Of a DNA stretch of 64,000 bases, positions 16,759 to 64,000 are shown in pieces. Every line of letters starts with the position of its first letter. Position 1 is the stretch's first letter. The notes beneath the pieces are model-generated. The model ran no database searches, was not told the origin of the DNA, and saw only the letters and a list, made by a program, of their open reading frames with translations. Both the position numbers and the translations under genes were made by a program. The DNA comes from a bacterium (GTDB taxonomy: Bacteria > Patescibacteriota > Microgenomatia > UBA1400 > PJMF01), in assembly GCA_017431625.1 (NCBI GenBank), contig JAFRKQ010000010.1, forward strand, positions 17,503-81,502. Direction: 5' to 3'.

Positions 16759-17511
16759 ATGTCAACAGTCAACGACAAGCCAGCGCTCTTAGTTCAAGGA
16801 GATTTCCAGTTTCCTTACCATTACAAATTTCCCGGTCAAGAGAGCAGTGAGGTGATTCTTTATGCCACTCGCGAGTCTCGACGACTGCTTTGGCTGCGCT
16901 ATACCTGGTTGATATTGGCCCTCTTAATCACCTATATCACCATTTATTGGTTGTGCTTTGAGCTGGGTCCTACCATTCTGGAGACTGGTCCGTGGCTACA
17001 TCTGGCACTGGTTTGCGCTCTGGTGAGTAGTACCTGTGGTTTGGCGGTCTACTATTATCTATCGCTGACCTGGCGCAAGACAGTGGGGATTCTTACCAAT
17101 TACCGCTTGGTAAAAATTGTCCAATACGGACTTTTTAATCACGCCACTCAGACTCTACCGCTTGATGAGGTGGTGGACACCAGTGTTGGCAATAAAAAAA
17201 TTTGGGAACGACTGCTTGGGGTCGCTACTTTTACGGCCCGCTCGAGCGCAGCTAGCTCTGGTCTGGCCACCGATGATGCTAGTGAGGGACGCTTTCGGAT
17301 CAACAAAAAGTATTTTTATTGGGAAAATATTGAGTATGGTGAGGACTTTGAAAACTATCTACACAAAATCCTCAAGCTCAGACATGACAATCCGATGCTA
17401 GATTTAACCTATTTTCGCCCATTTATCGGTAATTTAAAGGGAGATGAGCGTGAGCGGTTTATGCAGCGGTATCCTCAGTACTGGAGTCGCTCAACACAAA
17501 TTGCCCCTTGA
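16759..17511 (+). CDS. Membrane protein with bacterial PH-like domain (YdbT-like)
   Basis: 250 aa with TM helices. RBS AGGAG. The stop overlaps the -35 of promoter A. Confidence 0.45.
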   Translation: MSTVNDKPALLVQGDFQFPYHYKFPGQESSEVILYATRESRRLLWLRYTWLILALLITYITIYWLCFELGPTILETGPWLHLALVCALVSSTCGLAVYYYLSLTWRKTVGILTNYRLVKIVQYGLFNHATQTLPLDEVVDTSVGNKKIWERLLGVATFTARSSAASSGLATDDASEGRFRINKKYFYWENIEYGEDFENYLHKILKLRHDNPMLDLTYFRPFIGNLKGDERERFMQRYPQYWSRSTQIAP

Positions 17512-17537
17512 CAAAAAAGCAATAGTATGATATAATA
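17500..17537 (+). promoter_or_regulatory. Consensus promoter (TTGACA 17508-17513, TATAAT 17531-17536)
   Basis: aaATTGCCCCTTGACAAAAaagcaatagtatgaTATAATatagggt. Followed 7 nt later by a 32-codon ORF and then murA. Confidence 0.6.
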
Positions 17538-29826: not shown

Positions 29827-30699
29827 TTAAAGGGTTTCGATTTTGATGTTGGCATCATACTCAGGCATTTTGACAAAAGCCAAGTATTTTTCGGTGGTCG
29901 TCAGGCGTTTGTGACCCACAATTTGGGACACATAGACCATCGGCAAACCAGCGCGCAATTGCTCAACAATGAAAGTGTGACGCAGGTCATTGACCTTGAC
30001 ACCTGCTCCCAAGCCCGCCAAACGGAAGTAACGATCCAGTGACTTGCGGATATTGCGCACCAAAAATGGCTTGCAGGTCTTGGTCAAAAAGACCGTCTTT
30101 TCCCGGGCACGCGGGCGTACCTTGAGGTAAGCCTGAAGCGTCTTTTTGGCCGTCTCATTAAGCGGCACCTTGCGATTGAGATGAGTGTCTTCAGTCTCAA
30201 TATTGATAATTCCCCGATCAAAATCGAGGTCATCAAGCTTGAGATTGGCCAACTCACTAATGCGCATCCCAGTCTGGAGGAGAGTTTCCACCACGGCCAA
30301 CATCCGGACGTCACCACGGCAGGCATCACGCAGGGCGCGATACTCAGTTTTGCTCAAAACCCGAGGTGGAGTCTGCTCACATTGAGGTTGTGACACCAAA
30401 CGTGAGGGATTATCCGGGATGTAGTGATTATCACTCAAATAGCGGAAGTATGACTTGACCGAGTTGACCTTGCGTGAGACCGTTTTATCTGAGCGGTAAA
30501 CTTTGCCCAAATAATCTTTGTAGGCCTCAAGGTCATCAGCGGCCACGCTGGCAATTTCGTTTTTGCCCCGACCAGCCAAAAACTCGGTGAGTTGCTCGAT
30601 GTCTTTGGTGTAAGCGATGATCGTGGCGTGAGCCTTGCCAGAGGCACTTAAGTAATCGTTGAATAGCTTTTCGCGATCCTGAATTGTCAGATTTGACAT
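29827..30699 (-). CDS. Tyrosine site-specific recombinase (XerC/XerD/phage-integrase family)
   Basis: 290 aa. C-terminal LRHTFIVEQLRAG..VSQIVGHKRLTTTEKYL, with the catalytic R..HxxR..Y arrangement. Confidence 0.8.
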   Translation of the reverse strand: MSNLTIQDREKLFNDYLSASGKAHATIIAYTKDIEQLTEFLAGRGKNEIASVAADDLEAYKDYLGKVYRSDKTVSRKVNSVKSYFRYLSDNHYIPDNPSRLVSQPQCEQTPPRVLSKTEYRALRDACRGDVRMLAVVETLLQTGMRISELANLKLDDLDFDRGIINIETEDTHLNRKVPLNETAKKTLQAYLKVRPRAREKTVFLTKTCKPFLVRNIRKSLDRYFRLAGLGAGVKVNDLRHTFIVEQLRAGLPMVYVSQIVGHKRLTTTEKYLAFVKMPEYDANIKIETL

Positions 30700-39821: not shown

Positions 39822-40910
39822 ATGTATCCGCTGGTACAAAACATCTCGCTTTTTCTTCTGGGGGTTGGCTTTACGCCATTTGGCTTGTGGATTCTAGCCG
39901 GCCTGATTGTGGCCAGTGTAATTAGCCTGCTGCTTTTTTTTCAACTCTTGGCCAGTCTCACGTGTCAGCTGCTGGCCAAAAAATATCCTCACTCACACCG
40001 CTTGGAGTTATGGCGCTTGATTATTGATAAGTTTCGTCCTAGTTGGATTGGTTTTAATGGTGTTTACTACGCGATTTTGGTGTTGCCGCTGGCTGGCGAA
40101 ATCAAAATCTTTTTTACTGTTGGCTATTTAGTCTTAATGACGCTATTTTTGATTGACCTTTTGCGGACTATTATTTTGGGAGCGATCCGCATCTATCTGG
40201 AAAAGCGCGGCAAAGTCTCTCAGGAAGCCATCGAGACGGTCATTAATTTTTTCCGTGTGGTGAGCACGATTTTACTCTGGCTTTTGACCGGGGTGATTGT
40301 TTTGGTGATTTTAAATGTTGATATCAAGGGTCTACTTAGCGGTCTGGGTATTGCCTCGATTGTTGTGGCTTTTGGCTTCCAACAGGTGCTCAAAGACATT
40401 TTGGCTTTTTTTACGCTTTATATTGACCGTTCCTTTGCGGTGGGAGACTATGTGACTTTTGGTGATTATGAGGGTACTATCAAGGAAATTCGCATCAGGA
40501 CTACACGGATCAAGGCTCTTTTGGGCAATGAGCTGATTGTCCCCAATGAGGTCCTTATCGGTGGTGTGATTCAAAATTATAATCGCTTTGGGCAACGCCG
40601 GGTCTCATTTACTTTCAAAACACGAGTAGTTCCGGCCGATAGACTCCAGGCTGCCTTGGAAGAAATCCGCCAGACTTTTGCCAATGGGGACTTAGGTGAG
40701 CGGGTGAGCCTCACCAGTCTCACCCTCGAGTCAATCACAGATTATGGCCTACAAATCAAGATAATTTTCCGTTTTAGTTATATTCACGGCCAAAAAAACT
40801 ACACTCAATATCTCCACAAGCGTCAAGAAGTTAACACCCTGATCCTCAACACTCTGGCCAAATACCAAATTCCCTTGGTAGAGCTCTCTTGTGCTCACAC
40901 CCAGGCATAA
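39822..40910 (+). CDS. mscS: Mechanosensitive ion channel (MscS family)
   Basis: MscS beta-domain signature GDYVTFGDYEGTIKEIRIRTTRIKALLGNELIVPNEVL. Leaderless start 7 nt after TATAAT 39809-14; that promoter is embedded in the previous gene's 3' end. The track start is 39777. Confidence 0.75.
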   Translation: MYPLVQNISLFLLGVGFTPFGLWILAGLIVASVISLLLFFQLLASLTCQLLAKKYPHSHRLELWRLIIDKFRPSWIGFNGVYYAILVLPLAGEIKIFFTVGYLVLMTLFLIDLLRTIILGAIRIYLEKRGKVSQEAIETVINFFRVVSTILLWLLTGVIVLVILNVDIKGLLSGLGIASIVVAFGFQQVLKDILAFFTLYIDRSFAVGDYVTFGDYEGTIKEIRIRTTRIKALLGNELIVPNEVLIGGVIQNYNRFGQRRVSFTFKTRVVPADRLQAALEEIRQTFANGDLGERVSLTSLTLESITDYGLQIKIIFRFSYIHGQKNYTQYLHKRQEVNTLILNTLAKYQIPLVELSCAHTQA

Positions 40911-40948
40911 TTGCCTCTTGACAAAAGTGATGTTTTGTGATATAATAT
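40909..40948 (+). promoter_or_regulatory. Consensus promoter (TTGACA 40918-23, TATAAT 40941-46) facing the 3' ends of minus-strand tRNAs
   Basis: taATTGCCTCTTGACAAAAgtgatgttttgTGATATAATatagg. Followed by ATTAAG..CCTTAAGG and then CTGACTGGAC at 40975-84. Confidence 0.55.
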
Positions 40949-46132: not shown

Positions 46133-46172
46133 ATTATATCACAAGTAGTCATTTTTGTCAAGAGGCAATTAC
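46133..46172 (-). promoter_or_regulatory. Consensus promoter, minus orientation, pointing into the murJ 3' end
   Basis: Reverse complement ggcgtAATTGCCTCTTGACAAAAatgactacttgTGATATAATat, followed at +12 by ATACTGACTGGACTAAA (plus 46113-46122). Confidence 0.5.
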
Positions 46173-52754: not shown

Positions 52755-53348
52755 TTACATGAATTGACCGCGTTCCACAAAGGCTTCTTCATCGCCAATA
52801 ATCATCAGCCGTTTGCCATACATCACTTCCATGATGAAAGGATCACGCCGTTGCTTGCGAAATTTGAACTCATTGGCATCAAAAATGGCAAAATTAATCT
52901 CACGGCCCATTTTTTTCTCTTCTTCTTTGATCAAAGCCTCAAGCTCAGGGATGACTACCTCACCAATCACCAAAATATCCAAGTCATCGGATTTGGGATG
53001 ACGATTGAAAAAAGCCGGCGTAAAAACGACGTAGTCAAGCTTGCCAAGTTTGCGACGCAGACGGCGAATTTTTTTGCCCAGACCATTCTCCTTAAAGACT
53101 ATCTGCTGGAGCTCAGCAAAAAAGGGATAGGCTTTATTGACGCGGTAATAAGTGCGATTGCCCCGATCTTCAGTGACCAGAACGCCATTTTTGGTGAGAT
53201 TCATCAACTCACGCCTGACCGCATTAATTTCCTCATCAATCAAGCGAGTCGCCTCGCGCACATAATAAACCTCACCGGGATTGAGGAAAAAAAGTCCCAA
53301 GACCTTCACTCGCACTCGACTGGTTATCAAATCTTGTAATTTCGCCAT
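52755..53348 (-). CDS. Winged-HTH transcriptional regulator with C-terminal nucleotidyltransferase-like (D-x-D) region
   Basis: N-terminal wHTH (EVYYVREATRLIDEEINAVRRELMNLTKNGVLV). C-terminal DLDILVIG resembles a minimal-NTase motif. Minus -10 TGTGGTATAAT at 53396-53406. Confidence 0.5.
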   Translation of the reverse strand: MAKLQDLITSRVRVKVLGLFFLNPGEVYYVREATRLIDEEINAVRRELMNLTKNGVLVTEDRGNRTYYRVNKAYPFFAELQQIVFKENGLGKKIRRLRRKLGKLDYVVFTPAFFNRHPKSDDLDILVIGEVVIPELEALIKEEEKKMGREINFAIFDANEFKFRKQRRDPFIMEVMYGKRLMIIGDEEAFVERGQFM

Positions 53349-53460
53349 ATTTTCATCTTTCGATTACATTTTGTCCTTTACACAAATCTTTCCTATTATA
53401 CCACAATTTGTGAAAAGTTATGTATTAACTCGCATTGAGTTTTGTCAAACAAAAAAATAT

Positions 53461-53620
53461 TTTAACACTGCGGCGCTTCGTGCATATCTCCGCAGTGGAG
53501 TGCGGAGCTCCGCGCGGAGCTGTGCAATACAGTGCGTCGCTTGGTGCTAAGCGGCGAAGTAGAGTGCGGAGCTGTGCGCGCAGCAGTGCAGTAAAGTGCA
53601 CAGCGGTGCAAGGCAGATAA
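53461..53620. repeat. GC-rich palindrome-dense repeat block L (contains the perfect palindrome GCGGAGCTCCGC at 53502-53513 and internal direct repeats AGTGCGGAGCT..GTGC)
   Basis: About 65% GC in an AT-rich intergenic region. Inverted repeats CACTGCGG/CCGCAGTG. Related to block R at 59086-59185 (both carry TGCATATCT...TGCGGAGCTCCGC). No coding potential. Confidence 0.5.
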
Positions 53621-53650
53621 CAATAAATTTATTACAAGAAAAAAATTGCC

Positions 53651-53690
53651 TCTTGCATTTTATTTTTTGCGTGCTATAATTAAGAGTGAT
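53651..53690 (+). promoter_or_regulatory. Promoter for the giant gene (ATTGCCTCTTGCAT-17-TGCTATAAT) with an about 250-nt leader
   Basis: aaATTGCCTCTTGCATtttattttttgcgTGCTATAATtaag shares the ATTGCCTCTTG upstream half with the consensus promoters. Confidence 0.5.
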
Positions 53691-53944
53691 CATAGTACAA
53701 GGTAAATCAAAGAAAGGATAATTCAAAAACTAAATTACAGCTCCATACCCTAAGCGTAATTTAGACCGCAAGTAAATTTAGCTCGGACACACAAAAAGAC
53801 ACATGACACAGTCACAGGGGAGTGCCTGAGCGGAAATTTTGATGATTTCCATGAGGTTTACTTTGTCTATGATCAGTGACAGTCGTGTGTCTTTTTGTGT
53901 GAGCAAAAGGTCACAAACAGAAAAAAACAAAGAAAGGAAACCTG

Positions 53945-58054: not shown

Positions 58055-58111
58055 TTAGCAGTCTGTACCCTTATAAGTTTATTCAATTCACAAAAAATCT
58101 CTCACAAGAGA

Positions 58112-58140
58112 GATTTTTTGTTGGTAACAATCAAAAAACT
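58112..58140. terminator. Bidirectional rho-independent terminator AAAAAATCTCTCacaaGAGAGATTTTTTG
   Basis: Perfect 8-bp stem flanked by an A-run and a T-run, 60 nt after the giant gene's stop. Confidence 0.55.
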
Positions 58141-58205: not shown

Positions 58206-58790
58206 ATGAATCAAGTAGAAAAAGACACTATAGAACTTTTGCAATTGCTTGATAAGCGTTCAATCATTGGCCGCCAAATATCAATCGATGTGCTCGCACA
58301 ATTAAATAAAATGTCCACTCAACAGCTATATGTCTACGCACAACAGCAAGTTCAACATTACCTCAATTTTATGTTTGTCGGTTACGATCATCAGGCCAAA
58401 ATATATTTTCATCCCGGTAACACTGAATCAGTTGCTAAATACACTCAACATCTAATTGCAGGCAAAAATAGTGATATTAACCAAATTAAAACCGCTAGAG
58501 TATTGGGTTTAATTCTCACTCCACAAACAATTGCGCAACCATTGCAAGTGATTATTCAGGAAAACAATCGCCTTGCTTATAATTGTCTCTACCAACTGAG
58601 ATTTAAACAACTATCGCATACTGTCATTATTGGGACTGAAAATGGACAGGTGGGTCGAGTAATCACCTCAATTGTTACCATTGATCAAAAGAGAGATAAA
58701 CACGCCTCATTGCGTGACGTCAAAAAACTGTGTACACGGGCAAAAGAAATTTTAGTGGTAAATCTTGATCAACAAAAACGCGCCGCCTAG
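58206..58790 (+). CDS. Hypothetical cytoplasmic protein (194 aa)
   Basis: Own promoter TTGACTcataaaaacatcatcaatatgTTATAAT, 9 nt before the ATG. No recognised domain. Confidence 0.5.
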   Translation: MNQVEKDTIELLQLLDKRSIIGRQISIDVLAQLNKMSTQQLYVYAQQQVQHYLNFMFVGYDHQAKIYFHPGNTESVAKYTQHLIAGKNSDINQIKTARVLGLILTPQTIAQPLQVIIQENNRLAYNCLYQLRFKQLSHTVIIGTENGQVGRVITSIVTIDQKRDKHASLRDVKKLCTRAKEILVVNLDQQKRAA

Positions 58791-58892
58791 CAGCGCGTCT
58801 TAATTCTAGGCCGGACTGTCCAGGTATCTGCGTCCCGCAACCGACCAGCAAAGGTCAACGATTGATACCAATCTGACTATGCTCGGTAATCA

Positions 58893-58923
58893 CATTATAC
58901 CATAAAATTGCGATTTGTCAACT
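58893..58923 (-). promoter_or_regulatory. Strong minus-orientation promoter (TTGACA-17-TGGTATAAT) pointing into the 3' end of the 58206-58790 gene
   Basis: Reverse complement TTGACAaatcgcaattttaTGGTATAATg. The transcribed antisense segment contains CCTGGACAGTCCGG and TTAAG. Confidence 0.5.
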
Positions 58924-59085
58924 ATTTATATGACAATGAAAAAACTGCTTTATATCCACTAATCTTTATGATTAACACTTAGCTCAGCTGCACTAGCACT
59001 TTCACCCAACTAGAATTATTTTTTCGGCAAGTACCAGCACCTAGTCTGTCACAAAAAAACATTTCTTTACTTCAGTCACTCACGA

Positions 59086-59185
59086 GTCTGCATATCTATG
59101 TGCGCAGCTCGGCAGTAAATTGCGGAGCTCCGCACACATCTCGGCATTACACTGCCGAGCTCCGCACCGAGCTGCGCAGTGCTTA
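59086..59185. repeat. GC-rich nested-palindrome repeat block R (GCGGAGCTCCGC at 59122-59133, GCCGAGCTCCGC at 59155-66, arms GCGCAGCTCGG/CCGAGCTGCGC)
   Basis: Related to block L (shared TGCATATCT, TGCGGAGCTCCGC, GAGCTGCGCAGTGC). Upstream of the 59323 gene. Confidence 0.5.
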
Positions 59186-59322
59186 GATAGAATAACCAAT
59201 ACATCTAACAAGTAAAAAACAATCCGACAATTATTGCCCGAGGTAAAAATATTGGTAAACTTTGAGGCAGTTGCAACTATTGCAATTATACCTGTGTTGT
59301 GACAAAATAGAAGGCGATAATT

Positions 59323-60477
59323 ATGAAAACTAGTGTTAGTCAACCACCAAAAATTGACAAAAAAATTTATTTAATCGGCATTGGTTTGGCTATTGGCATT
59401 ACCTTGATGATTGTGATTGGCTTGAGTGTGAAAAATTATCTTTTGGGTACAACACCCACCTTTGTGAGCACTACTACTAATAATAGTATTGACAACAGCT
59501 CACTGGCTACCAGCCGTCAAGCCCGACAAGTAGAGGAAAAATATTTACAGGCAGCACGCCAACTAATAGGACAAGTAGACGAGTCGCTTATCAGTGAATC
59601 GCTTGATCATGCTTTAGCGGCCGCTTGGGCCTGGCATGAATACGCTGTCGCTACCAATGAGCAGTCAGCCTATCGCCGATCGGCAGAAATTTTGACCACT
59701 GCCAGTCAACTGATGGCCAACGGTGAACGCGTTAATTATTTCAATTGTCTGCTGATGAAAGATATCATTAACGATAAAACTGTCAGCGAGTCAGTCCGTG
59801 AACAAGCCCGACATCTGTGCTTGCAGGCGCCACGCAATTATTATATTGACTCCACGCTGTCGCAACTCCAGGAACAAGTAGCAATAGGTCTAAGCAGTGA
59901 CGATGGTTACTCACTATTTATGCACACACCCGGATTTTTAATCAATGAGCGTGAGGGGGAGTTTTTTGCTCAACTCGAGTCGGCAGCCATGTCGGGTGAG
60001 TTTGTGCCGGCAGCGGAAATCGACCTGGATCGAGAAATGGCCGATCTCTACCTGCCACGCCAGCTTATCACTGCCCTTGACTGGACCGCGATGAGCCGAG
60101 AGGTGATCGACCGACAAAAACCTAGTGAGGCCAAAATAGATGACACGCGAGATTTGGACCGTTTTTACTTGACCCAGCAGACTTACGCGTGGGTGAAAAT
60201 GGCAAATCACCCGGTCATTTCTGGTCAAACCCAGTGTCTGCTTTACCACAACTTAAAGGATTATTTTGCTCACTATGGTGATGATTTATCATCAACAACC
60301 CAAACTCTCACCCTCAATCAGTATGAAGGTCCTACCAGTGGGATTTTGTGTCGTCACGTCGCTTTTTGGCATGATCCGACGTCACTGGAAAAAGAAGTGT
60401 TGCTGGCGGAGGCCGAGTCACTACCGGACGAGGAAACCTACAAAATGTTAATTAGTGCGGGACTTTTGTGTCAGTGA
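59323..60477 (+). CDS. Hypothetical membrane-anchored protein (384 aa)
   Basis: AGAAGG RBS. N-terminal TM (IYLIGIGLAIGITLMIVIGL). No recognised domain. Confidence 0.55.
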   Translation: MKTSVSQPPKIDKKIYLIGIGLAIGITLMIVIGLSVKNYLLGTTPTFVSTTTNNSIDNSSLATSRQARQVEEKYLQAARQLIGQVDESLISESLDHALAAAWAWHEYAVATNEQSAYRRSAEILTTASQLMANGERVNYFNCLLMKDIINDKTVSESVREQARHLCLQAPRNYYIDSTLSQLQEQVAIGLSSDDGYSLFMHTPGFLINEREGEFFAQLESAAMSGEFVPAAEIDLDREMADLYLPRQLITALDWTAMSREVIDRQKPSEAKIDDTRDLDRFYLTQQTYAWVKMANHPVISGQTQCLLYHNLKDYFAHYGDDLSSTTQTLTLNQYEGPTSGILCRHVAFWHDPTSLEKEVLLAEAESLPDEETYKMLISAGLLCQ

Positions 60478-60488
60478 TCAAAGGTAAT

Positions 60489-63400
60489 ATGTCAAAGCGA
60501 TATTGCTGCTACCACCACTTAAAAAAACTCACGGTCTTATTACTTTTGGTTGTGGGCATAAGCGATAAATATGTGAGTATCGCTCAAGCCGAAATCCCCG
60601 AAAACGAGTGGCAATGTCCTCATGACACCAGCCACCTTCCCAATGGCAATCCTGGTTACAATCAATATTTGGACAACCGGTATTTACCGCGCAGCAAATT
60701 CAGAAAATTTGTCGAAAAATGTGGCAATGAAAACGGTCAGTTGTGGTATGATCAGCTCCACACGCAATATGGTAATAGCGGTTGGATGCTGAATTGTTCC
60801 AAAAATATGTTGTATAGTTTTTGGGACTACCGCTACTTGGATAGCAGCGGTTGTGGACACAAAGAATTTGCCTTGTGTATGCGTGAGCGTGATTGTGACG
60901 GCACTTATCAGACTTGCCCCGATGGTTATATGAGTGCTCCTGAGTTTTACCAACACCGGTGCGAAATTCCTTGCAAGCTTTACGAAACTTTAACTGGTCG
61001 CTCATGTGAGAGTATCCTGTTGCAAGCTAGCGGCACTATCGGCGATGATCTTGATAAATTCAAGGACTACAAACTTTCTTTTGACGCCAGTGGTAAAGCC
61101 GCGCTCAAACTCCTGCGCGAAAAGGTAGACACCGCCAACCAAAAACTACGTGATTTTCTGCAAGCCTATGGTGATGGTGATGACTTTCAAATCTCTTTCC
61201 CCACCGGACAAAATATACCGAACGTTCGCAAAGACATTACGACCGCCCAAAACAAAGTTAAAGCCGTCGCCGCTCCGAGCTCACTAGAGCTGACTCTCTA
61301 TCAAATGAGGCGCGATAGTGCCGAAACGCTTTATAATAATTACGTCAGTTTATACAATAACGCCAATAATCCTAATTATTACGAGCAACGCCGCCAATAT
61401 ACTTTTAAGTGGAGTGACTATGCTTATACTTGTGATTGGGGCAAGAGTGTGAGCGAATGTCAAAACGAGATTAGCGACAGACTCACGCAATCAACTGCTA
61501 CGTTCTGGAAGTGGTATCATTTAAACCGCTCTGGCAACTATAACGATTATCATTACGAAAGCTCAGATTATTGTACTGTGACTTATGGTGAATATAGTCA
61601 CATTTGCTGGTCCAATTGTGCTACCTGCCGGAATACAGTTAATTCTAATCTTACTGGCGCTACTAATAACTATCGCCAGTGGTATTTTCTTAATGAACAC
61701 AACAGTAATTACACCTATGACTATTACTACTACTATCATTATGGTAATGTCAGCTATACTTGTCCCCAGGCGACTGCACATAGCACTTGTCGAGAAAATA
61801 TTGCTCAACTGCGTGATGCGGCCAAACAAGACTATGAAGAGAAAAAAGCACTCTATGAAGGTGCGCGCAATTTTGATAATAACAAGGCTGATGTCGTCTA
61901 TGCGCTCACCCAGGCATCTAATGCCCTTACTGATTATGAACTGTCAACAACAGCGACAAAGGGCAATTGGTTGGATGGCTTTTGTACCAATATCAATAGC
62001 AACACCCGCAACTGTATCGTCGCGCGTCTGATGACCCGTTGTCTTAATCGCGCCAATAGTTATTTTACCTCAAGCACGCCGCCTGATTATGCTACCAATG
62101 GTGTTGTCACCGCCAATCGTGAAAGTCACACTTGCAATCACGGTCACAACAATACTTTGAATCCCAGCACCTGCGAGAAATTTGCCTGCTACCTAGAGCG
62201 TCAGGAATGTAGTGACTACAATCCTCTTTATGTGGAGAAGGGTGAGTCATGCGTAGTTGGCAATAGTCTTGGGAGTATCTACGTGCCCGAGCTTGGTCGC
62301 AGCTGCACTCAATGTGGTGCCGGTAATACTTGCCAGGAGGCGAGCACCTACGGCTGGTATTATGACTCCCAGCGCGAAAAGCAAGAGGGAGTGGGTACTG
62401 ATAGTCAGCAAAAAACACGCTGGAAGCTATTCTTCTACAATGAAAGTGTTGATGCTGGTCGCTGGTGGTCGGTGCGCACCAGTTGTGCTCCCGGACAAAC
62501 ACCCACTTATCGAGCCTTCGGTGATGAGCGTTGCATAGTCGGCTGCTCGCAATCATGCAGCGAAATTCCTGATCCGGATACTGGTGGCATGATGGAGGAC
62601 GACAAGGACACCAACTCTTGCGCCAGACGTGGCTGGAATCCACGCTACAAGCAAGTGACCGATGCTTATGGCAACAGACTCCAGTGTGTTGGCGGCTGTA
62701 TTGAACCTTGTCGCGACAATGGCCTGTTTACCCTGGCTGAAACTGGTTGTGATATCTACACTGACAGCGCTTTCTTGACAGCCAATACGCAAACTATCAC
62801 TCGCCACTATGGTGGCAGTGTGACCTGTTATAAAGATCGCTGCAAAAAGTCACCCGGTCCAATTGACAATGGCAATGAATGTGAAAATCAAGGTTATCGT
62901 GCTCAGTGCGATTCGGCCAGTGCTAGTAGTTGTCATTGGACTTGTTCAACCAACGAGCAACTCATCGCTCCAGAAGAAGTCATAGACAAAGACGGTAATA
63001 CTATTTACTGTACGCCCGGCTGTCAAGTAATCAGTGATCCGCCCCGACCTGCAGTTGATTGCGACACCCTCGGCCTCAACACCGATCCTTCAACTCTCAG
63101 TACTATTGCTCGTGAAGATGATAGCAGTCCAGTTTTCAATGATCTTTATAAAGACAAGAGTGAAGTTTTGTATGTGATTCGCAATGCGTGGCTGATTAAA
63201 AAAGCCCAACGAAAAATCGTGTACACTATTGGCGGTCGTAATTATTACGTTGTCTATGGACCCAAAGCGTCAGAGTTGCCAGAAGTCACCCGCACTCATA
63301 TTGTCTGTCGCTACGATAAGTGCCAACCTAATGACGCCGCTGTGCGCGCGAGTGAATTTGATCGTAGTCATGAATGTGCTAGTGATGATATCCGTGTTTA

Positions 63401-64000
63401 CGGCAAAGTCGATGATCGTTGCGGTCGCAGTTATCCTTTTGTGCGGACTTGCTATAAAGTACCGGAACCCAATCGACAAATTTCCTACGGTAAATGTCCC
63501 AATTACCGCTGCGGACGCCAACTGCGTGAAGAATGGGATGAAGACAGAAGCTATTGCGTCTACACTGATATTTGCAACACCTGCACTCCCGTGTGTCGTC
63601 ATGATACTGATCGCGGCTATGGTGTTTACCGGACAGCTTGTGTTGGCCCTGGAGGTGAGTCCACCCACTCTGACTATTGTAGTAGTACTTATTATGAAGC
63701 CACCATTGCCTGTAGCGTGCCTACTTGCACCAAGCTAGCAGACCACTTAAGTGATCTTGACCGGACTAATTACCTCAAATGCGATGCCGCTAGCACTACC
63801 CATAATACCATTGACCTAGATGACACCCATCACAATGAACAATCTTATGGCGTGGGTGGTAAATACCAATGTACCAATAACAATCCCGTGATTGATACGC
63901 ATAGTGGCTGTCATGACAATGGCGCGCGCTGCTTCCATGTCTTGGAGTGTGGCGAAGAGTTGGATAGTAGCGGTAATATCAAAGTGGCTGCCGATGGTAG
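60489..64000 (+). CDS. Second giant cysteine-rich secreted protein, partial (more than 1170 aa, continues beyond the window end)
   Basis: Manual translation from ATG 60489 shows no stop to 64000 (MSKRYCCYHHLKKLTVLLLLVVGISDKYVSIAQAE.. signal peptide). Cys/Tyr/Asn/Thr-rich like the 53945 gene. Not in the ORF track because no stop lies in the window. Confidence 0.65.
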   Translation, partial: MSKRYCCYHHLKKLTVLLLLVVGISDKYVSIAQAEIPENEWQCPHDTSHLPNGNPGYNQYLDNRYLPRSKFRKFVEKCGNENGQLWYDQLHTQYGNSGWMLNCSKNMLYSFWDYRYLDSSGCGHKEFALCMRERDCDGTYQTCPDGYMSAPEFYQHRCEIPCKLYETLTGRSCESILLQASGTIGDDLDKFKDYKLSFDASGKAALKLLREKVDTANQKLRDFLQAYGDGDDFQISFPTGQNIPNVRKDITTAQNKVKAVAAPSSLELTLYQMRRDSAETLYNNYVSLYNNANNPNYYEQRRQYTFKWSDYAYTCDWGKSVSECQNEISDRLTQSTATFWKWYHLNRSGNYNDYHYESSDYCTVTYGEYSHICWSNCATCRNTVNSNLTGATNNYRQWYFLNEHNSNYTYDYYYYYHYGNVSYTCPQATAHSTCRENIAQLRDAAKQDYEEKKALYEGARNFDNNKADVVYALTQASNALTDYELSTTATKGNWLDGFCTNINSNTRNCIVARLMTRCLNRANSYFTSSTPPDYATNGVVTANRESHTCNHGHNNTLNPSTCEKFACYLERQECSDYNPLYVEKGESCVVGNSLGSIYVPELGRSCTQCGAGNTCQEASTYGWYYDSQREKQEGVGTDSQQKTRWKLFFYNESVDAGRWWSVRTSCAPGQTPTYRAFGDERCIVGCSQSCSEIPDPDTGGMMEDDKDTNSCARRGWNPRYKQVTDAYGNRLQCVGGCIEPCRDNGLFTLAETGCDIYTDSAFLTANTQTITRHYGGSVTCYKDRCKKSPGPIDNGNECENQGYRAQCDSASASSCHWTCSTNEQLIAPEEVIDKDGNTIYCTPGCQVISDPPRPAVDCDTLGLNTDPSTLSTIAREDDSSPVFNDLYKDKSEVLYVIRNAWLIKKAQRKIVYTIGGRNYYVVYGPKASELPEVTRTHIVCRYDKCQPNDAAVRASEFDRSHECASDDIRVYGKVDDRCGRSYPFVRTCYKVPEPNRQISYGKCPNYRCGRQLREEWDEDRSYCVYTDICNTCTPVCRHDTDRGYGVYRTACVGPGGESTHSDYCSSTYYEATIACSVPTCTKLADHLSDLDRTNYLKCDAASTTHNTIDLDDTHHNEQSYGVGGKYQCTNNNPVIDTHSGCHDNGARCFHVLECGEELDSSGNIKVAADG

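Follow-up and report, generated by a model that had tools for sequence, protein, structure and literature searches.

In lambda, tandem palindromic operators occur at two sites, OL and OR, which are joined by a repressor loop. In pSM19035, arrays of heptads recognised by the omega protein lie upstream of several promoters, and the parC and parH arrays are bound by ribbon-helix-helix proteins. The Patescibacteria, or candidate phyla radiation (CPR), have tiny genomes with few recognisable regulators, and to our knowledge almost no cis-regulatory DNA has been characterised in these bacteria. The giant, fast-evolving surface proteins of CPR bacteria are believed to help these cells attach to their hosts. 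Here, two blocks of GC-rich palindromic repeats, L and R, are described from a 64,000-nt stretch (the window) of contig JAFRKQ010000010.1, where they lie upstream of two operons, each with a gene for a giant Cys-rich secreted protein:

53465..53624, no strand assigned: block L, about five tandem 32-nt units
59085..59180, no strand assigned: block R, three tandem 32-nt units

Similar to the operator and centromere-like arrays above, L and R contain several short dyad sites in tandem with helical phasing, are located in promoter regions, occur as more than one array per replicon, and include one array that is situated between divergent promoters. They are a familiar kind of element and not a new kind. 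We tentatively favor the possibility that L and R are multi-site arrays of double-stranded DNA that are bound by a dimeric or oligomeric protein acting on the two giant-protein operons.

The two blocks are genuine, ordered and lineage-specific palindromic tandem arrays that are related beyond what chance would produce. Repeat finding identifies in-register copies at spacings of 32, 32 and 32 nt in both blocks, Tandem Repeats Finder (TRF) reports a period of 32 with 3.4 copies and 65% matches, and the top autocorrelation lags are 32 and 64 in L as well as in R. An earlier note on this DNA, whose quoted strings were all recovered at their positions, had stated that the blocks lack regular spacing, which these results contradict. 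The units of L start at 53465, 53497, 53529, 53561 and 53593 (the last being degenerate) and are organised as two 64-nt super-units with a mutual identity of 77% plus one partial unit. The units of R start at 59085, 59117 and 59149, and R as a whole forms an imperfect 85-nt palindrome. Copy number consequently differs between the sites, with five units in L and three in R.

The eight units share the degenerate consensus A.AgTGCGGAGCT.cGCGCg.AGCTg.GCAGT, in which T5, G6, C7, C12, G16, A30 and T32 are invariant in 8/8 units, although the identity from unit to unit is just 50-80%. The conserved positions are symmetric around positions 17/18, with variable dinucleotides in between. Each unit comprises a 26-bp composite palindrome (TGCnnAGCTnnGC/GCnnAGCTnnGCA) followed by a 6-nt A-rich spacer; the composite palindrome is built from two 14-mer palindromes that overlap by 2 nt, and its four 'nn' dinucleotides are the variable positions of the site. 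The best-kept copies are as follows:

53501..53526: best-kept 26-bp composite site of L (unit L2), TGCGGAGCTCCGCGCGGAGCTGTGCA
59153..59178: best-kept 26-bp composite site of R (unit R3), TGCCGAGCTCCGCACCGAGCTGCGCA

Other 14-mers begin at 53481, 53565 and 53597 in L and at 59101 and 59121 in R, and the good 14-mers are separated by 12, 20, 32 and 52 bp. No perfect palindrome in the window is longer than the 16-bp one in L (AGCTCCGCGCGGAGCT, 53506-53521), and R carries one of the window's two 14-bp perfect palindromes (TGCGGAGCTCCGCA, 59121-59134). The strings recovered from the earlier note include TGCATATCT at 53479 and 59089, TGCGGAGCTCCGC at 53501 and 59121, the pair CACTGCGG/CCGCAGTG at 53466/53489, and the pair GCGCAGCTCGG/CCGAGCTGCGC at 59102/59167. 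The GC content is 59-61% in the blocks and 25-41% in their flanks, and L and R are the sole non-coding GC-rich islands in the window, as small coding genes account for the remaining GC peaks in gaps that look intergenic.

The relationship between L and R was evaluated by motif counts and alignments. Within the 64-kb window, for which all counts of motifs and units hold, GCGGAGCT occurs seven times against 1.5 expected, always within L or R; GCGGAGCTCCGC (at most one mismatch) occurs three times against 0.1 expected, and 8/8 matches to TGCNNAGCTNNGCA (at most one mismatch) fall in L or R. Local alignment of L with R scores 46 in direct and 42 in inverted orientation, whereas dinucleotide shuffles score 17-18 +/- 3 and 0/1000 of them reach the observed values. 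Global alignment gives 60.0 for the inverted and 57.8 for the direct orientation. The blocks are therefore relatives, as had been proposed, while the accompanying description of them as lying in the same orientation does not hold as an assertion: the units are quasi-palindromic, and the inverted arrangement fits as well as the direct one. The longest exact stretch shared by L and R is 13 nt, and their identity is about 70-76%. Both blocks recur without a difference in separately assembled metagenomes of this population (99.5-100% identical), indicating that assembly error did not create them. The contigs that match belong to the XIEF21-1 metagenome set, taken here to be from ruminant gut, and 13/13 same-population contigs are collinear with the window, with identical blocks and no deletion, inversion or change in copy number. 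Contig ends cluster at or near the blocks (53406, 53421, 53950, 58817-58923 and 59030), and contig L109, from a relative, begins at 59159. Since short-read contigs of both the population and the relative break near L and R, the blocks seem to hinder assembly or sequencing; as a practical point, contigs assembled from short reads of this lineage break where L and R lie.

The palindromic symmetry of the units was probed by comparing base pairing in the true register with that in slid registers and column shuffles. A hairpin spanning the whole unit pairs 69.2% of cells, compared to 20-49% in slid registers and 66.8% in column shuffles, of which 129/500 are as good. When the unit is treated as two separate 12-mer palindromes, pairing is 67.7%, compared to 67.5% in column shuffles (269/500 as good). 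Across both tests, slid registers give 20-51% pairing and the true register 68-69%, and compensatory changes among the eight units are in no excess over column shuffles. The palindromic register is real and is fully accounted for by column composition, that is, by the consensus. Symmetry that resides in the consensus without covariation fits a protein site that is read as sequence, not an RNA that is read as structure.

Folding experiments in silico bear on whether L and R could instead function as RNA. As RNA, the blocks fold better than their shuffles (z = -2.9 for the plus strand of L, -1.8 for its minus strand, and -4.4 and -4.2 for R), and as single-stranded DNA, R reaches z = -6.1, with single units also folding well; this behavior is attributable to the palindromes. 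An alternative in which the blocks are transcribed and act as a tandem-hairpin small RNA or leader, as a type III antitoxin-like repeat RNA, or as a divergent guide array of the tandem interspaced guide RNA (TIGR) type would draw on this folding and on the G-T pairs used by some plus-strand stems (unit L3). However, the position of the hairpin varies by unit (an 8-bp stem with a 16-nt loop in L1, a 9-bp stem in L3, and a 26-mer palindrome in L2), there is no covariation, L is located upstream of both flanking promoters, and Rfam has no match. An RNA role is consequently considered highly improbable; the structured noncoding RNAs that the earlier note had listed among its possible roles find weak support in the folding and none in the pairing, which is no better than that of column shuffles. 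In an Rfam search of the whole window at the gathering threshold, only tRNAs were recovered, and over the blocks with E values up to 10 the best scores were 15-18 bits, compared to gathering scores of 60-100 bits.

TIGR arrays have a short period, are common in CPR bacteria, and are sometimes found on both sides of tas (PMC12045711; bioRxiv 10.64898/2026.09.09.750476). They resemble L and R in their short period (about 36 nt in TIGR), in their tandem arrangement, in the lack of long CRISPR-like repeats, in their pseudo-symmetric units and in being able to flank a gene on both sides. In contrast to TIGR arrays, L and R lack variable spacers, boxC-N9-boxD intervals with 4-nt gaps and a terminator after the array, and their period is 32 with a 12/20 sub-spacing, not 18/18. 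Under the TIGRFinder rule, a chain needs four or more intervals, each made of a boxC of 3 nt, a spacer of 8-10 nt and a boxD of 2 nt, with gaps of about 4 nt; for any pair of 3-mer and 2-mer on both strands, the longest boxC-N8-10-boxD chain in the blocks is 2, which equals the background of 30 random 300-nt windows. The would-be spacers recur (GGAGCTCC twice, GGAGCTGT twice), and an AGCT core recurs among the candidate 8-nt 'spacers' in 5-7 of the 8 units, so that these are not variable. No Nop-domain or Tas match was detected for the 194-, 197- and 384-aa proteins of the locus (see below) in Pfam (E up to 5), NCBIfam or PDB sequences.

Several other classes were also considered. Clustered regularly interspaced short palindromic repeat (CRISPR) arrays have near-identical direct repeats of 25-36 nt and unique spacers of similar length. 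The units of L and R abut with a period of 32, are 50-80% identical, and match no Rfam CRISPR repeat family; the lack of spacers excludes CRISPR, in agreement with the earlier note. In the ToxI-type layout, a promoter, tandem near-identical repeats of about 36 nt, a terminator and a toxin gene follow each other on one strand. Here, the units differ from one another, a promoter and not a terminator comes after L, and there is no toxN-like open reading frame (ORF) after either array as there is after ToxI. BOX elements of Streptococcus pneumoniae, with about 100 or more dispersed copies per genome and distinct boxA and boxC ends, share with L and R a modular intergenic nature, a variable number of tandem units, strong predicted structure and frequent proximity to promoters; L and R differ in forming two clusters in place of dispersed copies and have no sequence similarity to BOX. 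Restriction-site avoidance is not indicated, as nothing is out of the ordinary for GAGCTC or other palindromic hexamers, and a small-ORF explanation fails because a period of 32 cannot be divided by 3 and no credible ORFs are present.

The location of the arrays is best appreciated from the genes of the locus:

52755..53348, minus strand: 197-aa gene (MBQ6449588.1), the last gene that is syntenic with L006
53945..58054, plus strand: giant-1, 1369 aa, Cys-rich, with an N-terminal hydrophobic segment
58206..58790, plus strand: 194-aa protein, a stand-alone PBECR2-like domain
59323..60477, plus strand: 384-aa protein anchored in the membrane, encoded by the first gene after R
60489..64000, plus strand: giant-2, more than 1170 aa, Cys-rich, with an ORF that continues beyond the window

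The promoters assigned to these genes, and the leader of giant-1, are as follows:

53393..53425, minus strand: predicted promoter of the 197-aa gene, an extended -10 with TGTGGTATAAT on the minus strand, assigned by reading; its -35 is weak and it was missed by the promoter scan
53645..53680, plus strand: promoter of giant-1, ATTGCCTCTTGCAT-N16-TATAAT with TGc before the -10, a member of the consensus family
53687..53944, plus strand: structured leader of giant-1, about 258 nt between promoter and start codon
58894..58921, minus strand: perfect consensus promoter TTGACA-16-TGgTATAAT, found by the promoter scan
59262..59290, plus strand: probable promoter of the 384-aa/giant-2 operon, TTGAGG-16-(TGc)AATTAT, a putative assignment; kept in L109

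Block L sits between two divergent promoters, beginning about 60 nt upstream of the promoter of the 197-aa gene, and the giant-1 promoter begins 25 nt past its other end. Block R is flanked by the leftward perfect promoter, with R about 165 nt upstream of its -35, and by the probable rightward promoter of the 384-aa/giant-2 operon, whose -35 lies 82 nt downstream of the end of R. Relative to the presumed start sites, L spans about -67 to -222 and R about -117 to -212.

The promoters of this genome are stereotyped. The form ATTGCCnCTTGACA-N17-(TGA)TATAAT is present in 16 copies in the window and is common to L006, and it is so conserved that it constitutes a dispersed repeat of about 50 nt (for example 2547-2583 on the minus strand, 17500-17536 and 40910-40946 on the plus strand, and 46133-46169 on the minus strand). 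The TGTGGTATAAT motif of the 197-aa gene promoter is also kept in L006. The promoter at 58894-58921 matches the consensus at 12/12 positions, has a TG extension, and points in antisense orientation at the 3' end of the 194-aa PBECR2-like gene; a terminator-like hairpin past it (58701-58716, minus strand) would delimit a possible antisense RNA of about 190 nt. By analogy, this layout could recall the antisense control of a toxin gene. The giant-1 leader has a minimum free energy of -69 kcal/mol (z = -4.6), contains a 20-nt inverted repeat that is 95% complementary (53788-53807 / 53882-53901), and has no match in Rfam.

Judged from its sequence, the host is a Patescibacteria/CPR bacterium, and the nearest release-factor loci all come from CPR metagenome-assembled genomes, the best (L006) having 77% identity. 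Conservation of the blocks was examined in this closest genome and in L109. No block is found in L006 upstream of the gene orthologous to the 197-aa gene. At 8500-8640 of L006, the intergenic DNA between a nuclease-like gene and dnaE contains TGTGTGGCA four times in about 120 nt. Contig L109 comes from a different sample, ERZ28654704, has 74% nucleotide identity over the 384-aa gene, and begins inside R. Its first 15 nt, which form the end of R (the 3' part of unit R3), are 15/15 identical to the window, and the next 6 nt contain a GC to CG swap that gives a perfect CCGAGCTCGG palindrome; at its outer tip, R differs from L109 (CTCGGCAATCA vs CTGCGCAGTGC). The following 60 nt or so are only about half identical and gapped, up to islands at the promoter and the 5' untranslated region.

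These comparisons are relevant to the suggestion that the blocks are neutral remnants, left to decay after GC-rich DNA was long ago duplicated locally or inserted. The earlier note had envisaged neutral GC-rich remnants should relatives show no conservation and the blocks neither transcription nor protein binding. The low identity between units and the failure to find homologous blocks in the other genomes searched, including L006, are what such decay would produce. However, seven positions are invariant over eight units in strict register, a GC-rich island persists in surroundings of 25-41% GC, and the visible end of R appears to have been kept in L109 while the adjacent DNA diverged, which, over the 21 nt compared in this one relative, argues against neutral decay. 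The neutral explanation is therefore regarded as unlikely.

Further copies of the blocks were sought more widely, and no additional full block was recovered beyond the R end kept in L109. A motif count and a hidden Markov model of the unit, applied to 108 fetched loci (1.4 Mb of related CPR DNA), detected copies in same-population contigs only. Three scans of viral contigs returned nothing, or chance matches in high-GC coding DNA, and BLAST in distant mode against phage and plasmid collections gave no match to the blocks. One scan of Joint Genome Institute (JGI) metagenomes returned 11 matches, 8 of which are chance matches in contigs of 51-61% GC; the other 3 lie in contigs that are low in GC, identical to each other, and marked by a 10-nt repeat of GCGGAGCTCT. 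These contigs (L099 650-671, L103 4990-5011 and L108 579-600) come from different metagenomes, have 37-45% GC, and contain GCGGAGCTCT within the identical stretch ...GTGTTCGTGTTCGTGTTCGTATAGAAGAAGTGGAGTGCGGAGCTCTGCGGAGCTCTGCGGACGGTGCGGA....

Taken together, binding by a dimeric or oligomeric protein is the reading that best fits these observations, and of the roles offered in the earlier note, that of operator clusters for a dimeric regulator fares best. The arrays have a dyad-symmetric consensus with the symmetry in the conserved bases, show no covariation, have a 32-bp period, and are located upstream of promoters, as expected of operator arrays; furthermore, the TGCNNAGCTNNGCA motif is confined to the two promoter regions of weakly paralogous operons. 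We infer that the 26-bp composite site in each 32-bp unit would be the site of protein binding. Because 32 bp corresponds to about three helical turns, successive sites would be aligned on one face of the helix, where cooperative binding is possible. Binding would then probably activate, silence or insulate the two lineage-specific operons in a coordinated manner, and a loop could join L to R.

A number of observations weigh against such a role. No cognate binding protein could be established among the genes of the locus: the 197-aa gene, whose product has a winged-helix-like signal, is kept in L006, where there is no block upstream, and the 194-aa gene between the blocks encodes a PBECR2-like nuclease domain and not a regulator. 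The arrays lie far upstream and clear of the core promoters, a position that does not suit simple repression by occlusion. The cross-species comparison extends over 21 nt of one block, and tandem GC-rich palindromes are also typical of the repeats described below. In contrast to lambda OL/OR, the omega sites of pSM19035 and parC/parH, no cognate repressor, ParR-type or omega-type gene has been identified for L and R, which are GC-rich, are located 67-222 nt upstream of the starts, have no sequence similarity to those arrays, and are predicted to be bound by a protein.

The main rival, next after the binding arrays, is that L and R are clusters of lineage-specific short GC-rich extragenic palindromes with incidental effects on genes. 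Such palindromes would spread or be kept through a hairpin or cruciform, through binding of gyrase or a nucleoid protein, or through a RAYT-type transposase encoded elsewhere in the genome. Repetitive extragenic palindromes (REPs) are described as palindromes of 20-40 bp that are often found in regularly spaced composite elements, the bacterial interspersed mosaic elements (BIMEs) (PMC2817692, PMC3733652), and one of these sources gives more than 100 copies per genome for the REP families that it describes (PMC2817692). L and R are comparable to REPs and BIMEs in being imperfect GC-rich palindromes of 20-40 nt (a 26-nt palindrome per 32-nt unit, 59-61% GC) that are clustered regularly in tandem in AT-rich intergenic DNA and are capable of forming hairpins. 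The strong folding of single units and of all of R as single-stranded DNA, the difference in copy number between the two sites, and the tendency of metagenome contigs to end at or near the blocks, including the start of L109 within R, point the same way.

Several features do not conform to this description. Only two clusters with eight units are present in 64 kb, both at one locus, and the related CPR loci and viral contigs contain no copies, with chance matches only in the JGI metagenomes. No Y1/RAYT transposase was found among the ORFs of at least 70 aa picked from the window; RAYT genes are single-copy and could sit elsewhere in the genome. The GTAG/CGTC end tag is found in at most one of the eight units (GTAG precedes unit L4 only, at 53558, the other linkers being GTGG, ATAC, GTAA, GTAA and TTAC). 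Finally, BIMEs alternate in orientation and are usually located at the 3' ends of genes, whereas the units of L and R share one common register that does not clearly alternate and lie upstream of promoters. A REP/BIME-like nature is somewhat unlikely on this evidence, and the protein-binding arrays remain the tentatively preferred reading.

To the left of 53.35 kb, the genes are core housekeeping genes (among them those for murein synthesis, a tRNA synthetase, PNPase, RRF, EF-P and release factor 2), whereas every gene to the right of L is lineage-specific. Synteny with L006 stops exactly at the start of the 197-aa gene, and L is located at that boundary. The cassette between L and R spans 5.5 kb and contains giant-1. 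In an alternative explanation, L and R are targets of a site-specific recombinase or transposase and could bound, invert, excise or exchange this cassette. The blocks flank the cassette and align inverted as well as direct, their outermost 22 nt or so are inverted relatives (TAACACTGCGGCGCTTCGTGC vs the reverse complement CTAAGCACTGCGCAGCTCGGTGC), L coincides with the end of synteny, the cassette holds a domain typical of polyvalent proteins of phages and conjugative elements, and a tyrosine recombinase gene (Xer-like) is present at 29827-30699.

However, this Xer-like gene is 24 kb from the cassette, among housekeeping genes, and no recombinase or transposase is encoded in or beside the cassette. 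In addition, the 13/13 collinear contigs offer no sign of rearrangement, the outer tip of R is not kept in L109, and more lineage-specific genes follow R, so that R is not the right boundary of an island. Exchange or deletion of the cassette by recombination between direct repeats, as the earlier note had suggested, is implausible by homology, since identity is too low and the longest exact shared stretch is 13 nt; a site-specific mechanism is quite unlikely. A related proposal, in which L and R are the paired multi-site ends of a switchable cassette and a recombinase or looping silencer encoded elsewhere reads the 26-bp palindromes, must be considered very doubtful.

The proteins of the locus have few recognisable relatives. 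Giant-1 has no Pfam or NCBIfam domain, and a word-indexed search of 5.8 billion clusters returned no homologue, not even giant-1 itself. In the gene calls for contig L001, giant-1 is broken into five pieces, and L001 differs from the window there by four substitutions and a scaffold gap. Just 3' of giant-1 is a perfect 14-nt inverted repeat (ACAAAAAATCTCTC/GAGAGATTTTTTGT, 58090-58121) that looks like a bidirectional intrinsic terminator. Giant-2, which is weakly paralogous to giant-1 (E = 4e-5), also carries a hydrophobic segment at its N terminus and likewise lacks Pfam and NCBIfam domains. For the 194-aa protein, the word-indexed search returned only the protein itself; in a full HMMER search, its homologues are mostly internal domains of polyvalent proteins of 1.3-3.7 kaa, which also hold LPD38, LPD5, LPD1, MuF_C, PBECR3, SLT and RadC domains. 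PBECR2, a family of Barnase/EndoU/RelE-like nucleases, is matched by 7/14 aligned members. The 197-aa protein has faint winged-helix (ArsR/PaaX-like) and nucleotidyltransferase signals. Single-sequence AlphaFold models are poor, with predicted local distance difference test (pLDDT) scores of 35 for the 194-aa and 41 for the 197-aa protein. The 384-aa protein has a single relative, P0003, with 76% identity, whose source contig is L109. Over positions 1-64000, the cumulative GC skew reaches a maximum at about 35-41 kb and then declines, which hints at a replication-related switch point.

The consequences of these findings depend on the role of the blocks. If L and R are REP-like, they would represent an unusual case of such repeats in a reduced CPR genome. 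If the switchable cassette were true, operons for the giant Cys-rich surface proteins of this CPR episymbiont would be turned on, off or over, and this would be a mechanism of surface variation not previously described in Patescibacteria. If the blocks are regulatory, a conserved, ordered DNA element upstream of two giant-protein operons would provide a concrete handle on the control of these operons, and the defined 26-bp site is offered for isolating the protein that may bind it.

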